64,000 nt of DNA, from NCBI GenBank assembly GCA_951406725.2, contig OX597819.1, forward strand, positions 37,944,001-38,008,000. The letters are read 5' to 3'. The notes under the pieces are model-generated. The model saw only the letters and a list, made by a program, of their open reading frames with translations. It made no database searches and was not told where the DNA came from. This stretch comes from Octopus vulgaris (taxonomy: Eukaryota). A program made the position numbers and the translations under genes. How positions within the stretch are numbered: the stretch's first letter is position 1; every line of letters starts with the position of its first letter. This document shows positions 7,317-57,496 of the stretch, one piece after another.

Positions 7317-8520
7317 TTGGGTTGCGTCAAAAATAATTTCTGATTTTGTTAAATACCTTTAAATAAATGTTCCTTCTCGAGCCATGCCAGGTTCATAAGG
7401 GCTGGTTTCCCGGTTTCAGTAGTGTAGAAATTCCCCACCTGGATGGGACACCGGTCCGTCGCAGGATTACTAATTTTTGCCAGCTGAGTGGACTGGAGCA
7501 ATGTGAAAATGAAGTGTTTTGCTCAAGAACACAATGCATCTCCCGGTCCAGGAATCGAAACCACAACCTTACGATCATGAGTTCAACACCCTAACCACTA
7601 AGCCACGTACCTCTACTAAATACCTTTAGTCATGAAAAAAATTTTACAAAGAATTATTTTCAATTATCAGTATAATTGCCATTATTTTGATTAACCTCTT
7701 GCCATTTATTAGGTAGCTTTTTGACAGGAAAAAACTTTCCACATACTTCATCTTCTTGAGAACATTTTTTTCCCCCCATCAGACCATTTTGTAGAGAGCA
7801 AAAAAGATGGGAATTAGTTGGTGAAAGGTCCGGTGAATATGGTGGATGGGGTAGAACAGACCAGCACAAATTTAATATTTTATCCTGCGTGATTGTTGCT
7901 GAATGTGGTCTTGCATTATCATGGAGAAGCACAACATTTTTCCTATTGACAAGTGCAGGGCATTTTCTTAAAAGATTTTCATGCACACATTTGAGCTGTT
8001 GAGAGTATAAGTTGTCATTTTGTGTTTGATTGTGGTTTGAAAAATCAAACTGAATAATGCTGTGGTGATCCTGTCATACACACAACATAACCTTTCTTCC
8101 ACAGAGCTCAGCCTTTGAAATAGGTTTTGGAGATTTATCCTTGTCAATCCACTGCCTTTTGCATTGAACATTGTCATAAAAAAAACATTTTTCATTACCT
8201 CTAATGTTATTATCGAGAAACAGGTAATTTCTTTGCCTTGAAAGAAGACTTGTCACTATGGACATGTGATCATCCCTAGTCTTCTCATTAAGAGTATGGG
8301 GAACACAAACACCTAGCTTGCTGACTTTTCCTAGCTTTTCCAAGTGGCAGCAGATAGTGGATTGGGATGTGTTGAGGTCAACTGCTAATTTCTGAGTACT
8401 TTTACAAGGATTGAATCCCACTAATTCTGTTAAAGCATCTTGGTCAAAGTCTGATGAGAGTCCTGGTCTGAGTTGATCTCTTAGTGACAACTCTCCAGAA
8501 TGAAACTTTGAAAACCAATT
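7317..8520 (-). mobile_element. Mariner-like transposon relic (frameshifted transposase)
   Basis: ORFs with [31 protein letters not shown] and GNEKCFFYDN; one TIR-like end at 7317; the other end is cut by an RTE insertion. Confidence 0.88.
7362..7616 (-). mobile_element. tRNA-derived SINE inserted in the mariner relic
   Basis: 12 bp TSD TAAATACCTTTA at 7350-7361 and 7617-7628; tRNA-like head; related copies at 41656-41913, 61897-62140 and 62945-63186. Confidence 0.85.
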
Positions 8521-12850: not shown

Positions 12851-13129
12851 GTAAGTCATTTAGTTGTAAGAAAATATAGTTCCAGATGTGGACATTAAGT
12901 AACAAATTTTGAGGGGAGGATGGGATGCACAGTTACAGCTGTATCAATACATGCTTGTGATTGGTATTTATTTAAAAATGAAAAGTAGTTAACCCCTAAG
13001 AAATTTGAACTCAGAACATAAATGGAGGAAACACAAAACTGGATAATATTCTGTCTGGTGCTGCACTAATTCTGCTACTACCTTGCTTTTAATACTTTAA
13101 TATAGAAAATCAGGATGTCGTAGAAGAGA

Positions 13130-15265
13130 AGTGTATCAGTATGGATGATGGTCCACATGCTGTTAGTAGTGATTCTGCAAAGAAAGAGGCTTGGAAATGC
13201 TATTATGGAAGGCTGCTAAATGTAGAGAATGCATGGTAGGAGAGTCTGTCTAATGCAAACCCAATTGAGGGACCAGTGATCTGAATCTACAGTAGTTTGG
13301 TAGATAAAGTAATTAAGGATATAAAGACAGTGGAAGCCCTTGGACCATCAGGAATCATTACTGAGATGCTTAAAATATCTGGTGGAGTGGGATATGGCTT
13401 AGTCAGGTTGTCCACGAAGGAGTCATATCCAATGACTGGTGTAACAGTATCATAGTCAACTGCTACAAAATTCAAGATGAATCCTTAGACAGAAATATTT
13501 AAAGAGGTATCAAATTGCAGGACCAGATAATGGAAGTTACTGAAAGGATTATAACTCAACTAATTAGGAAGAGAATTAATGTAGATGAGATGCAGTTTGG
13601 TTTTGTGTTTGGGAGAAGCATGACTGGTGCTATATTCCTGGTGAGGCAACTGCAAAAGAAGTACTTGGCCCAAAATAAACCTCTGTATTTGGCTTTTGTT
13701 GACACAGAGAAAGCCTTTGACAAGGTTTCCCCACTCCCTTATCTGGTGGTCAATGCAGAAGCTAGGGATAGATGAGTAATTAGTGAGAGCTGTACAAGCC
13801 GTGTACAGGGATACTGCCCGTAAGGTGAGGTTTAGCAATGAGAATAGCAATGAATTCAGTGTACAGGTAGGAGTTCACTAAGGGTCAGTTCTCAGCCTGC
13901 TCTTGTTTATCATAGTTTTTTAAAGCTTTAACAGACAAATTCAAGACCGGCTACCCCTGGGAGCTCCTCTATGCTGATGACTTTGTTCTTATAGCTGAAT
14001 CATTACCTGACCTAGAGAAGAAATTTCAGGTGTGGAAGACTTAGAGTTAATTTAGCAAAGATCAAAGTCCTAGTAAGGAGGAAAACAGATAAATCACAAG
14101 TCCCTTCAAGGAGATGGCTCTGCTCAATATGCAGAAAAAGTGTTGGTTCAAACTTCAATATGCAGAAAAAGTGTTGGTTGAGACTTCATACAGTGCAAGC
14201 TGTAGTGATATCACAGGAAGGTTAACAAAGAAAATAGTCTTTGTGTGGCAAATGTGCAGGTACAGTTAACATTAAGAATGCACAGGGAATAAACTTCCTC
14301 AGATGCTTGGAGAAATCTTAGAAGTTGTAGATAGCTTCTATTATCCTAACTTCCACAGCTAACTTGGTTAGCTGTGAAAGAAGAAGTTCTGAAAGCATAG
14401 TTGCTAGAATAAGAACAAGCTGGGCAAAGTTCAGAGAGCTACTACCTTTGCTGGTAACTAAGGGCCTCTCCCTCAGAGTGAAAGGCAGATTGTATGATGC
14501 CTGTGTATGAACAGCTATGCTACATAGTAGTGAAACAAAAGCTGTGACTACATTGGATTTGCAAAGGCTTGAAAGAAATGAAGCCAGCATGGTTTGCTGG
14601 ATGGGTAATGTCAGTGTGTACATATGAAAGAATGTAAATGATTTAAGAGGAAAGCTGAGTACATGAGGCATCAGATAGTGTGTGCAAGTGAGAATACTGC
14701 ACTAGTATGGTCTTGTGATTCATATGGATGAGGACAGCTACTTAAAAAGTACCAATCTCTAATTATGAAGGGAACCTGTTGAAGCGGTAGCCTCAGGAAC
14801 ACATGGGATAAAGAGGCAAGGAAGAATCTTGAGATGCTGGGCCTCACTGAAGAAATGACAAGGGACTGGGAGTTCTGGTGATTTGCTGTATTTGAGAAGA
14901 CATGTCAAGCTTTGTAAAATCGTAGCCATACATACATACAGGCATGTCCTTTATGGACATGCCCCAACTCCCTCTCCCAGCTAAGAGGTCTTTGTCTTGC
15001 AGATGCTGGTTCCACGTAAATTGCACTTGCATCAGTGGCATGTAGAATGCACCCATGCTAGTAGCACAAAGAAAGCATCCATCACACTCTTTAAAGTGGT
15101 CGGAATTAAGAAGGGCATCCAGGCATAGAGACCATGCCAAAACAGACTATTGGAGCCTGGACAGTGCTCTGGCTGGCCAGCTTCTGTCAAACCATCCAAT
15201 TCAAGCAGATATTGAATGGAAAATAGATATTAAATGATGATGTTGATGATGATGATGATGATAAT
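13130..15265 (+). mobile_element. 5'-truncated, decayed RTE-clade LINE (RT, 3' UTR, GAT tail)
   Basis: MQFGFVFGRSMTGAIFLVRQLQKKYLAQNKPLYLAFVDTEKAFDKV, LLYADD and KGLSLRVKGRLYDACV; many stops and frameshifts. Confidence 0.92.
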
Positions 15266-27100: not shown

Positions 27101-28167
27101 CACAGACATGCAGGAAGTAAATAGACACCTTTAATTTTCAAAATCTTTTATTTAACACGCAAAGCAAACATTTGATATGTAATTGATAGGTAGGGCTACA
27201 TACTTTAGTATTTTGTTGACATTTCCTTTGCAGTTTTTAATTCAGAAACTCTTTTTGGCATTGAACTAATGAACTTTGTGAGTGTCTCTTGTGGAATTTC
27301 TGCCCACTTTTCACACAACAATTGAAACAATCGTGTGAATACAACGGAAGTAGTCCATGCTTAAGTACTTCGATATATTTTTCAGAGTTTATGGTTCCAA
27401 CACATTCGATCAGCTCAGAACGACCATTGCTGTTAACAGCTCCCCATACCATTACAGAGATACCACCATGTTTCACAGTTGGTTGGAGTCATTTCAAATC
27501 AGATTCTTGATTGGGAAGCCTCCAGACCCAAACACGTCCACTGTCTGAAAATAATACAAATCTGGATTCATCTGAGAAAATCACGCTATCCCAAAATGAA
27601 CTGGATTTTTCTGACATCTCCTTAGCCCATTTTTTTCTTTTCATGATATTAATTGGTTGAAAGAGAGGTTTTCTTCTCTCTGCTTGCCCATAATACCTAA
27701 GCTTATGCAGATATGTTACACATGTTCTTGGACTAACTTCTAGCTGTTTTGCAATGTCAAAAGCCTTTGAATGGGGATTATTTTCCACAATTCTCTTCAA
27801 ACAGTGAAGCTTCCTTTCCGGGGGCCCAGATCAGCTGGGACAAGAATCTGTTGATTCTTTTTCTTGGCTTTTGATTTGCACTATAATTCTATTAACAGTA
27901 GCAAGAGGAATTTGAAGAATTTCAGCAATTTTTCACTGGCTAAGACCAGCCTCAGATTGCCCAAAAATACAACCCCATTGAAAATCTGAGTTCTACTGAA
28001 TGTTTTGTGTGTGGCATGGTTACTCTTCGCAAATGTTTAATATAATGGCACCTGGAATGAAAAAGAATAATTACGTTGTAAATTCTACACCGCTGAAAAC
28101 ATATTAAGACGCTTAGATCAGAAATTTTGAAAATTAAAGGTGTCTATTTACTTCCTGCATGTCTGTG
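27101..28167 (-). mobile_element. Tc1-like transposon, internally deleted, with intact TIRs
   Basis: Perfect 44 bp TIRs CACAGACATGCAGGAAGTAAATAGACACCTTTAATTTTCAAAAT and TA flanks; [12 protein letters not shown] and [11 protein letters not shown]; second and third catalytic motifs missing. Confidence 0.93.
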
Positions 28168-40922: not shown

Positions 40923-41214
40923 GTAGGTTTTTAGAAATTCTCCCATATTTGGAAATAAAACTGATATAAGAGAAGAATTATATTTTGGATATAAATAATA
41001 TTTTGAAAAGTATACTTTACAAAGCAAAAGCAAAAGCCAAAATAAGAACATATCTCTATTGAGTAAAAAGGTACAATGCCAACTTTCCAAATACTGATGG
41101 TCTCTGGAACCTCTTATAATCTACACTAATTTACAAGCAGGAACTCCAAATTCCTGTGACAGCCATGCTAGTTTACTTGGTATCTTGCAGTGTGCTATAT
41201 TAATATAAACGAGT

Positions 41215-41342
41215 ATCATCATCATCATCATCATCGTCGTCATGTAATGTCCTCCTTCCATGGGTTGGACAGTTTGACTGGAGCTGGCCTGGTAGGATCC
41301 TGTGCCATGCTTCTGAGTCTGTTTTGGCATGGTTTTTATGGC
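41215..41342 (-). mobile_element. 3' terminus of an RTE-type LINE fused to the U6 copy
   Basis: accatgccaaaacagact...gtcaaactgtccaacccatgg...(GAT)n tail; same 3' end as the RTE at 13130-15265. Confidence 0.85.
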
Positions 41343-41448
41343 AAGAAATATGGAACTCTTCACAAATTTGCATGTCATCCTTGTGCAGGGTCATGCTAAT
41401 CTTCTCTGTATTGTTCCAATCTTAGTATATGTGTAGCCAGAGCAATAC
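41343..41448 (-). pseudogene. U6: Full-length U6 snRNA retropseudogene
   Basis: Minus strand reads GTATTGCTCTGGCTACACATATACTAAGATTGGAACAATACAGAGAAGATTAGCATGACCCTGCACAAGGATGACATGCAAATTTGTGAAGAGTTCCATATTTCTT. It is collinear with metazoan U6 including the ACAGAGA box; many differences are at CpG sites. Confidence 0.95.
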
Positions 41449-41655
41449 GTTTATACTAATGTACAAGTAGGTACCTGTATTTCATTTAATCATTTAAGTA
41501 AATTTCATATTTAATTCAGAGTGTGACCAGCTCTGGTTCAGAAAAGTCAGTAATCTGGAATGGTTTCAGTACCAAAGATACCAGGAAATCCATGTTGTAT
41601 CTATACTGGAGAAGGAAATGCTGTTGAAAATTAACACCAATTATAGTAATTACAT

Positions 41656-47750: not shown

Positions 47751-49003
47751 CAGGGGTTGGACAAAATAATGGAAATAGCTTAAAATTTCAAACAAATTAA
47801 TTTTAATATGGGGTAGAACCGCCTTTGGCTTGAATTCTATGAGGTATGGACTCATACAAAATTTGAATTGTTTCCAAAGGAATTTTTGTCCATTCTTCAG
47901 CTAAAACAGTCTCCAGTTCTTGTAGTGATGATGGTGGAGGATATCAACTCCTTACTTGTTTTTCTAAAATGCACCATAAATGATCGATAATATTGAGATC
48001 TGGGGACTGTGGTGGCCAGATAAAATGTTCAACTTCATTAAAATGTTCCTCATGCCATTCAGTAACAACTTTAGCTGTGTGAACTGGTGCATTATCATCC
48101 TGTAATATATTTCCCTCCAGAAGCAGTTTCTCAACCATAGGATGAATTTGATCAGATAAAAGGCTTAAATAGTCTATTAATTCTGCCATGAAGGAAAACC
48201 ATTGGGCGGGTGGATTTCCAAGATATAGCCCCCCCCCCCCCCCAATCATCATAGATCCTCCTCCATGTTTAACAGTTGGAAGAAGGCAGTCTGGGTCAAA
48301 TGTTTCTTTTGGCTGTCTCCATATGTATACTCAGCTGGCGGTTGGAAATAAGGTAAAGAATGACTAGTCTGAGAAAATAACAATCTTCCACTGCTCTAGG
48401 GACCAATTCTGTAAGTTTTTACTCCACTTTAAACACTTTGCAATATTTGTTTTTGAAAATAGTGGGTTTCTAATTGCAGCCCTCTTGTGAAATATGGCTT
48501 TGTGCAGCTCCCAGCAAACAGCTTTTGTGGAAACTGGGTTCTCAAGGTTGTCATTAAGCTCTGTAGAAATTTTGGGAGCTGTACTTTTGTGATCCTTTCT
48601 AACAATTCACGTAAGAGTCCAACGGTCCCTATCTGAAAGTTTTGGTTTTCTTCCAGAGTTTTGTTTCAATGAGGAGATTTTTCCCTCTTTCTCAAAGGCT
48701 GTCTTTACTTTCAAGTCAGTACTTCTTAATACACACAACATTTCAGCTGTTTCCGTTACGCTAGTGCCTGCCATATGAATACCAACAATTTGACCTCTCT
48801 GAAAGTCTGATAGATCAGTCATTTTAATTAATTTTAATTACCCTTTCTGATGATATCTGAAAAGAAACAGCAATTTTAGCAAAACATATTAAGCAACACT
48901 AATAATAAATAAAAAAAACATAGATATAAACAAGCTTTTTACGGTTTTATATATATTTCAAAATTATGATGCCAGGTGTTTCCATTATTTTCTCCAACCC
49001 CTG
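47751..49003 (-). mobile_element. Tc1-like transposon, near full length, decayed
   Basis: TIRs CAGGGGTTGG(A/G)..AAATAATGGAAA with TA flanks; MTDLSDFQRGQIVG, LQDDNAPVH and WPPQSPDLNIIDHLW. Confidence 0.93.
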
Positions 49004-55477: not shown

Positions 55478-57496
55478 GCTTTTTACATACCACCAGCACA
55501 GGGAGCCAATCAGGTGGCACTGGCAATGACCCACGCATGCATGGTGCTTATTGCATGCCACCACCACGGGAGCCAGTCAGGCAGCACTGGCATCGGCCAC
55601 AACTACAATTTCCATTTGATTGTGATTTGGTTTTAGATTTGATTTTGATTTAGATTTTACTTGACTCAATCGGTCTCCTCAAGCACAGAATGTCACCCAA
55701 CAATTCAAAGGTACTTTTTAAATCGGCTGGTTATGCGACACTGGTGTAGGCTATGGCTGTGATCTCACTTTACTTGCCAGGTCTTCTCAATCACAGCATG
55801 TCTCCAGAGGTCTCGGTCTTTCATCATTGCTTCTGTGAGGCGTAACATTTGAAGGTCATGCTTCACCACCTCATCCCATGACTTCCTGGGTCTCCCTCTA
55901 CCACAGCTTCCTTCTACTGTTAGGAAGTGACACTTCTTCACACAGCTCTCTTCATCCATATGCAGCACATAACCATAACATGCAGTCGTCTCTCTTGTAC
56001 ACCACATCTGATGCTTCTGATGTCCAACATTTCTCTCAGGGTGCTTACACTCTGTAGTGTGTGCACACTGGTCATTACAAATCCAGCGGATCATACTTGC
56101 TTCATTTTTTTCAAGCCTACACATGTCTTTAGCAGTCACAGCCCATGTTTCACTGCTGTGTAGCATGGCAGTTTGCATGCATGCATCATACAATCTACCT
56201 TTCACTCTGAGCGAGAGGCCCTTTGTCACCAGTAGAGGTAGGAGCTTTCTGAATTTTGCCCAGGCTATTCTTATTCTAGTGACAATGCTCTCTAAGCATT
56301 CACCCCCCCACTACAGACTTCTTCTTTTCTGCTTCTCCCTTGGGTATGTATACCTGTCTCCCTGCCTCCCTTCTGGCTATCTGGTACAGTTCCCTGCTAC
56401 CCCAACTCTTCCAGGCTTTCCAGGCCTGTTTCTTTGCTCTAATGGCCTGGTCTACTGTATTATTCCACCACCATGTTACTCTAGGTATGAAAGGGACTTT
56501 GCACTAGCTGCAGATTTGGACTGTGGCACTCAGTAAGCTGTCCCATAGGAATTTCCAGTTACCCTCTATGTCCAAAGTTTGTAGCTCCTCCTCTCTCTCA
56601 TCAAATTTCTCAATGAGGATGTCCCTAAATATCTGACCATGTGAAGGGTTCTTAAGCTTCCAAATTCTTCTTTTCTGGATTGGTCTGCTTCTTGGCATCT
56701 TTCTGGCCTTGATTCTAAAGCTATTAATAACTAGTCTATGCTGGTGGGTACATTCTTCACCTGGGAGGGTCTTTGTATTCAAGAGCAACCTTGCATCCCG
56801 CTGCCTGGTGAGGATGAAATCAATCTGGCTAGCAGAGTCCCCTGATTGATAGGTTATCAGGTGGCTGTCTGGCTTCCTGAAGTTAGCGTTGCAGATTAAT
56901 AGGTTGCATGCATCACAGAACTCCAGTAAGCTAATTCCCTCTTTGTTTCGGGAACCATTCCATGGCTCCCATGAACACCATGGAAGAAACCGGATTGCCA
57001 TCTGACATGCCCATTAAAATCTTTAGCCACAAAGATGAGGTCATTGCCACTCATCTTTGAGGTAGCCTGTAGAAGGGTATCATAAAAGTGGTCCTTCTGG
57101 TCATTTGGTAGGCCTGCTTGTGGAGCGTAGGCAGAAATAATTGTAGCTATACTATCCTGCAGGACTAGCCTGAGCTTAAGCACTCTATCGCATACCCTGA
57201 CTACCTCTATGACCTTATCCACCCATTTCTCCACAAAGAGTATGCCTACATCCCCTACTCCATTTATGTGCCTTGCCTGTGAGGACCCTGGCTGAAGCTC
57301 CTCTCCACCTTACCTTTTGTATGCAGCATACATCAACACATCTCTGTTCAAGCATCTCTACAATCTCACTAGACCTACATTTCAGTGTGCCAACATTGAC
57401 TCTAAAAGTTGGGAAAGGAATGTGGGAGGAGGCATGGGGAGGGGAGATGTTATTCAGTGCCTGGAAAGAAGGTTTCTGTGTTCGTTTGATAGACAT
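55478..57496 (-). mobile_element. RTE LINE relic: AP endonuclease and C-terminus present, RT domain deleted
   Basis: NVGTLK..VDVCCIQKVRWRG, IISAYAPQAG, DFNGHV, SQIDFIL and QHRL; jumps near 56312 to KGLSLRVKGRLYDAC...GRGRPRKSWDEVV. Confidence 0.9.

Follow-up and report, generated by a model that had tools for sequence, protein, structure and literature searches.

Chimeric retropseudogenes joining U6 small nuclear RNA to the LINE L1 were reportedly described in mammals by Buzdin in 2002. In the sections of later papers drawn on here, these mammalian copies carry U6 5′ of a 5′-truncated LINE in the same orientation, with variable junctions and as the product of one event (PMC4476161; PMC6789731; PMC13174262), and ligation and template switching were both still listed as explanations for U6 chimeras in 2026 (Law and Burns, PMC13174262). 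Partners other than L1 have also been reported, with U6 joined to RTEX-2, L2 and AnolisSINE2 in Anolis and to L2 and Mon-1 in platypus (Doucet, 2015, PMC4476161), so that chimeras of U6 with RTE elements or SINEs are not new as a kind. The crocodilian SINEU elements likewise place an snRNA-derived head on a LINE-type tail and are ascribed in part to template switching, but they are U1- or U2-headed families that propagate from master copies (Kojima, 2015, PMC4494074), whereas the octopus copies described below have a U6 head and are independent events. For Octopus vulgaris itself, a repeat table in a supplement has a single “SINE/U-L1” family, totalling 52,753 bp, on which no comment is made (Bonar, 2026, PMC13282606). 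This table label, known by name rather than by sequence, is possibly an automatic consensus of the chimeras described here; no partner in our set is L1, and the terms “snRNA” and “chimer-” are absent from the main text of that paper (PMC13282606). Our searches of the open-access literature turned up no account of U6 chimeras from molluscs or any other invertebrates.

The locus considered here lies in a 64,000-nucleotide stretch of octopus DNA (the window), in which U6 (RF00026) is the only RNA family matched by Rfam. The match occupies 41344..41448 on the minus strand and covers positions 1-105 of 105 of the model at 90.2 bits (cut-off 44), in agreement with the complete minus-strand U6 copy reported in the initial annotation. 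The genome contains three gene-like U6 variants (A, B and C), and this copy is nearest to variant B, which it matches at 94 of 107 alignment columns (88%). It has lost one base and carries a mutated, broken 5′ stem-loop and several CpG-type changes, and the sequence upstream is a dispersed host repeat without the TATA-containing promoter context of U6 genes. Judged on these features of its sequence, the copy is a full-length retrocopy and a pseudogene; a functional U6 gene at this position is ruled out by the upstream host repeat, the 88% identity and the broken 5′ stem. The U-tract and junction (41343..41348, minus strand) read three T, CT and T, after which U6 runs without a spacer and in sense orientation into a LINE segment at 41342, with zero microhomology to the native upstream sequence of the LINE as taken from its relatives.

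That segment (41215..41342, minus strand) comprises the final 128 nt of a 3′ UTR that belongs to an older LINE subfamily, as established by comparison with copies in the window and in the genome, and it ends in (GAT)n. It is 68-76% identical to the other copies of the repeat in the window, which bears out the direct join of U6 to the tail of an RTE-like family in the window that had been proposed, and its 29 nearest relatives fetched from the genome are 79-91% identical over the matched part. Nearly all of these 29 relatives extend 5′ beyond the window junction point, and none of them carries U6. In one genomic copy (L233) a tail of the older subfamily connects through ~900 nt of UTR to ORF2 remnants, and it is by way of L233 that the window tail is linked to the younger subfamily to which the full-ORF copies belong. 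Each of 20 genomic copies of this younger subfamily has one ORF of 1,026-1,043 aa, and in the 18 copies whose end was located the 3′ UTR is 630-890 nt and ends in (GAT)n. Pfam assigns to the ORF an Exo_endo_phos domain (35-245), an RVT_1 domain (564-764) and a sub-threshold PHD domain (780-823). The architecture, a single APE+RT ORF and a 3′ end made of the microsatellite (GAT)n with no poly(A), fits an RTE-like LINE, where the single ORF means the APE+RT ORF at which the explicit search was directed, rather than any upstream ORF1. A homolog search with the partner RT gave zero clade-named matches among the best 120 of 1,558, the Atlas names being generic.

The younger LINE (L199-L218) has many near-identical, intact ORFs of 1,040 aa with a PHD-like finger after the RT, and has probably been active recently. 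It is apparently distinct from RTE-2_OV, for which the cited part of the source gives an ORF of 1,109 aa with a C2H2 finger (PMC9115989), as compared with 1,026-1,043 aa and a PHD-like finger here. The window also contains decayed ORF remnants from this group of LINEs, at 13105-14908 (+) and 55768-57475 (-), and Tc1/mariner-like fragments were seen by eye at ~7660-8520, 27489-27830 and 47944-48330. Inspection by eye of the 42 window ORFs of at least 110 aa recognised no host gene.

The U6-LINE unit interrupts an older dispersed host repeat, the upstream half of which lies at 41449..41610 and the downstream half at 41069..41217 (both minus strand), each with 39 other matches among 40 candidates scored, of 396 and 181, respectively. 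In 17 of 28 uninterrupted paralogous copies the two flanks are collinear and adjoin end to end, with a projected overlap of -1 to +1 nt; the other 11 have indels or align poorly downstream. These paralogous copies from the same genome, rather than a cross-species orthologue, represent the empty site, and they lack both U6 and the tail. Because the sequence on both sides of the entire unit is one contiguous host repeat, U6 and the LINE tail very probably entered as one chimeric insertion, as had been supposed from the outset. The flanks had also been read as a decayed TSD, here an 18-20 nt candidate, and the resemblance exists, with agreement in 16 of 20 columns (P ~0.001-0.005 against random flanks for a transition-tolerant score picked after the resemblance had been seen, and P 0.033 under plain scoring). 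That reading is rejected, since the two stretches stand side by side in the empty host copies; they are inverted arms of the host repeat, at 41196..41211 and 41448-41463 (16 nt, 88% complementary), and the true target duplication is 0-3 nt, or near-blunt. The insertion point is a GAT that matches the (GAT)n tail, the final GAT of which is common to the target site.

Another copy of the host repeat (L271) carries a run of (GAT)n at the corresponding position, and a further copy (L259) has an RTE tail fragment ~20 nt away, which suggests a target preference for sites resembling the LINE's own 3′ end. An exact TSD of at least 8 nt is missing from nine of ten RTE-type chimeras, and short or absent TSDs seem to be normal for this RTE-like LINE.

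Taken by itself, the locus is an ordinary example of the known U6/LINE chimera class, with no evident function. It differs from the mammalian U6/L1 copies as described in the cited sections in that the partner is not L1, there is no poly(A), and the locus has no TSD of 6-19 bp (PMC4476161; PMC6789731; PMC13174262). The Anolis and platypus chimeras are more similar, in that the partners are “stringent” LINEs other than L1 and the SINEs of these LINEs, U6 copies lack poly(A) tails, and TSDs are short there as here (1-9 bp in platypus), according to the portions of that study drawn on (PMC4476161), while the host here is an invertebrate. What is new in this genome is the scale, the joins at SINE starts and the linker signature of the chimera class.

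A strict pattern for the U6 3′ end was searched across the genome (2.8 Gb, 227 contigs) and gave 343 matches, as compared to 0 for a reversed control; the window U6 itself fails the pattern, so 343 is a lower bound. The sample described here consists of the first 100 matches in genome order (contigs C1-C5), all with intact U6 3′ ends. Independent retrocopies account for 79 of them; the other 21 are gene-like (8), belong to inverted pairs (8) or are segmental duplicates (5). Of the 79, 73 are fused in sense orientation to a LINE or SINE (5 of these partners having been assigned by eye) and 2 are fused to another U6, while the partner of the remaining 4 was not recognised. The partners of the 73 comprise 36 SINE 5′ starts (25 of S1, 8 of S2 and one each of S3, S4 and, by eye, a 5S-like head), 28 short tails that belong to a second LINE or to SINE S1, which shares the tail, 2 internal SINE joins and 7 RTE-type sequences. 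The second LINE, which may be CR1-like, has an RT ORF that ends ~27 nt before its T1 tail.

An automatic count, which takes in the 5 duplicates and 7 self-matching library exemplars from U6-fused copies, also gave 73 sense partners per 100 copies and 0 antisense, compared with 2.1% and 2.0% at 148,194 flank positions. RTE-type partners alone are found at 7 of 100 copies against 0.7% expected (P ~1e-5; the automatic matches number 5, P 8e-4), so the excess of RTE tails beside U6 for which the initial annotation had suggested looking is present. Varied RTE junctions, suggested there as a sign of independent formation, were found as well: the 141 copies examined in all include 15 RTE-type chimeras, with joins ~113 to ~2,100 nt from the tail and heads from all three U6 variants. 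For the locus, the proposed partner is supported as an RTE-like LINE, but genome-wide RTE accounts for only 7 of 73, most partners being tRNA-type SINEs or the tail of the second LINE. Extrapolation gives ~250-270 chimeras in the genome, ~24 of them RTE-type, as compared with 3 RTE-type chimeras in Anolis and 40 chimeras in platypus under a stricter 97.5% filter, as reported in the cited part of that study (PMC4476161).

Insertion as a single unit is seen elsewhere too: in six of 76 other chimeras, the RTE-type L034 included, the interrupted host repeat picks up again beyond the tail, and for an RTE-type chimera in this group the host is an older RTE ORF. Exact flanking repeats of at least 8 nt occur in 11 of the 76, against 2.5% when shuffled, one of them being an artefact of a neighbouring SINE, and are absent in the other 65; of the 7 S2 chimeras that could be tested, 4 have clean TSDs of 8-14 nt around U6 and SINE together. 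No U6 copy proved to have a poly(A) tail, the sole candidate being a tail chimera.

The U6 5′ ends are bimodal in the 73 chimeras: 51 heads start no later than nt 17, and of the 22 that are 5′-truncated, 17 start at nt 58-69. The region of nt 58-69 is presumably near the internal stem-loop and the 2′-O-methyl cluster. By comparison, the sections drawn on give full length as the consistent state of U6 heads in human (PMC6789731; PMC4476161; PMC13174262), while those of platypus are mostly truncated (PMC4476161). The octopus heads are mostly full-length, and half of the chimeras join an intact SINE 5′ start.

At these 36 of 73 junctions the SINE begins with its leader included. The tails of known native sequence allow 26 junctions to be tested for added bases, and of these, 20 contain extra bases other than T, 4 a run of more than six T, and only 2 have a clean join (two anchorless rows were dropped from the count, and the pair 95/96 is a local duplicate); extra bases at so many junctions also set the octopus copies apart from mammalian U6/L1, as far as the cited sections describe the latter (PMC4476161; PMC6789731; PMC13174262). 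In 26 of 107 chimeras, and likewise at the window junction, the T-run is followed by CT, and the T-runs of these copies are shorter than those of the others (P 0.003). Read-through of U6 genes is an unlikely source of the CT linker, which occurs with all three variants and is followed by bases that match no gene flank. More speculatively, added purines could have been clamped on the U6 tail by G-U pairing; heterogeneity of the tail is an alternative reading. A hot spot of junctions lies just 5′ of the stem-loop in the tail of the second LINE, within a single-stranded, A-rich linker of the predicted fold, and U6-free copies are also truncated at this point (~5 of 30, read by eye). Exact copies of the T1 tail number 7,745; among the first 30, U6 is present in only 2. 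In the two tandem U6-U6 fusions (L091 and L103) the join falls at nt 1 of the second U6.

With these features in view, we consider it reasonably likely that a LINE reverse transcriptase jumped from its own template onto U6, rather than that RtcB had ligated the two RNAs. At the locus, the target was the older repeat, opened near-bluntly at the GAT that matches the (GAT)n tail. Target-primed reverse transcription would begin at that GAT, and the enzyme would stop after ~128 nt of its own RNA, add a few untemplated bases, jump end to end to the U-tail of U6 and copy U6 to its first base. The same architecture recurs genome-wide with varied partners, junctions and U6 paralogs, so that each copy is an independent event. 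The promoter of U6 is external (PSE/TATA) and its terminator is a T-run. Given this established biology, a fused copy would be unable to propagate as a unit. Both the addition of untemplated bases and template jumping are described for the R2 polymerase in the cited part of one study (PMC2718515).

The principal alternative, which we regard as rather unlikely although not negligible, is that the RNAs were joined before retrotransposition, RtcB linking U6 with its 2′,3′-cyclic phosphate to the 5′-OH of a cleaved LINE or SINE RNA. Such ligation would account for the common orientation, the one-unit insertion and the variable junctions as observed, and the sense fusion is predicted equally by jumping; the hot spot in a predicted single-stranded A-rich linker and the 51 of 73 heads near full length also agree with it. 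Pol III transcripts begin with a 5′ triphosphate, and nt 1 of U6 is capped. In the work that demonstrated RtcB ligation for human U6/L1, and as far as the sections drawn on go, the enzyme needs a 5′-OH and does not ligate 5′-triphosphate RNA precisely, and the ligation products have precise joins after ~4-6 T (PMC6789731). Jumping is therefore favoured over ligation by the half of joins at intact SINE 5′ starts, by the extra bases at 20 of 26 testable junctions, and by the position of the hot spot, which is also a truncation point of U6-free copies. The U6-U6 joins at a capped nt 1, the lack of antisense partners (0 of 100) and the rarity of non-TE partners (at most 4 of 79) speak against ligation as well. 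Several points weigh against jumping: the window junction might represent six U's of which one later changed from T to C, and so does not discriminate alone; the extra bases could have been templated by the flanks of unseen source copies or reflect heterogeneity of the U6 tail; and SINE RNAs could be nicked or dephosphorylated to a 5′-OH in the leader.

Extending template jumping to the whole set, we hold the case to be evenly balanced for and against the broader view that at least two LINE enzymes routinely make end-to-end jumps onto U6, leaving a LINE or SINE RNA, often at an intact Pol III 5′ end, and that they have produced at least 250 independent chimeras marked by untemplated linkers, a recurring CT signature and stalling at U6 nt 58-69. 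If this is true, no comparable set would have been described before in an invertebrate, and the formation of U6 chimeras without RtcB ligation would have support on the scale of a genome.

It is much less probable that a U6 copy and a LINE tail inserted separately, one abutting the other. In favour are the density of these repeats in the genome, with a sense start near 2.1% of flank positions, and the lack of a long TSD at the locus; against this stand the contiguous host repeat, with paralogous copies that approximate an empty site lacking both parts, and the 73 sense partners to 0 antisense. Under the geometry of target-primed reverse transcription, an insertion primed at the T-run of U6 would place its partner in antisense and tail first, and a repeat ends just upstream in only 9 of 100 copies. 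Equally improbable is a U6-headed SINE family that propagates itself from one master junction, which the initial annotation had raised should the chimera prove multi-copy: the recurrent junction zone on the tail of the second LINE (28 of 73), the few copies that share a CT linker and the single “SINE/U-L1” consensus would suit it, but at the strictness of the pattern the window junction occurs once genome-wide, which refutes such a family for this junction, the nearest tail relatives are without U6, linkers, tail subfamilies and U6 paralogs differ between copies, and U6 has no internal promoter, according to the cited part of the source (PMC4494074).

The set provides hundreds of natural junctions from non-L1 enzymes, some poorly explained by ligation, and together with the young intact ORFs it makes the choice between ligation and jumping testable. 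Individual chimeras also illustrate the exchange of heads that has been proposed as a step in the origin of new SINEs. A point for annotation is that retrocopies, not genes, make up the majority of U6 matches in this genome, 8 of 100 being gene-like.

Several other U6 arrangements were observed in the census. Head-to-head inverted U6 pairs (L019:1370-1666, L124:457-747, L136:1107-1804, L040, L127, L145 and L093), to which 8 of the 100 sampled copies belong, are dispersed, fold back, share gene-like 3′ flanks between loci and have no LINE tail. A tandem array of seven genes of U6 variant C, spaced at ~1.1 kb, lies at C1:139.42-139.43 Mb, and a six-fold segmental array with a unit of ~20 kb at C1:132.42-132.53 Mb carries one chimera. 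At L142 (C4:80599067) U6 is joined to a SINE with a 5S-rRNA-like head, as seen by eye, the 3′ half of which resembles SINE S1, and at L088 (C1:179099331) a full-length U6 is followed by ~400 nt of GC-richer sequence, possibly the 5′ part of another element. The 45-nt tail of the second LINE is also found behind the 5′ half of other tRNA-type SINEs (L171, L176, L184 and L166), in three of them at the same point, a probable case of head and tail swapping into a new SINE subfamily.
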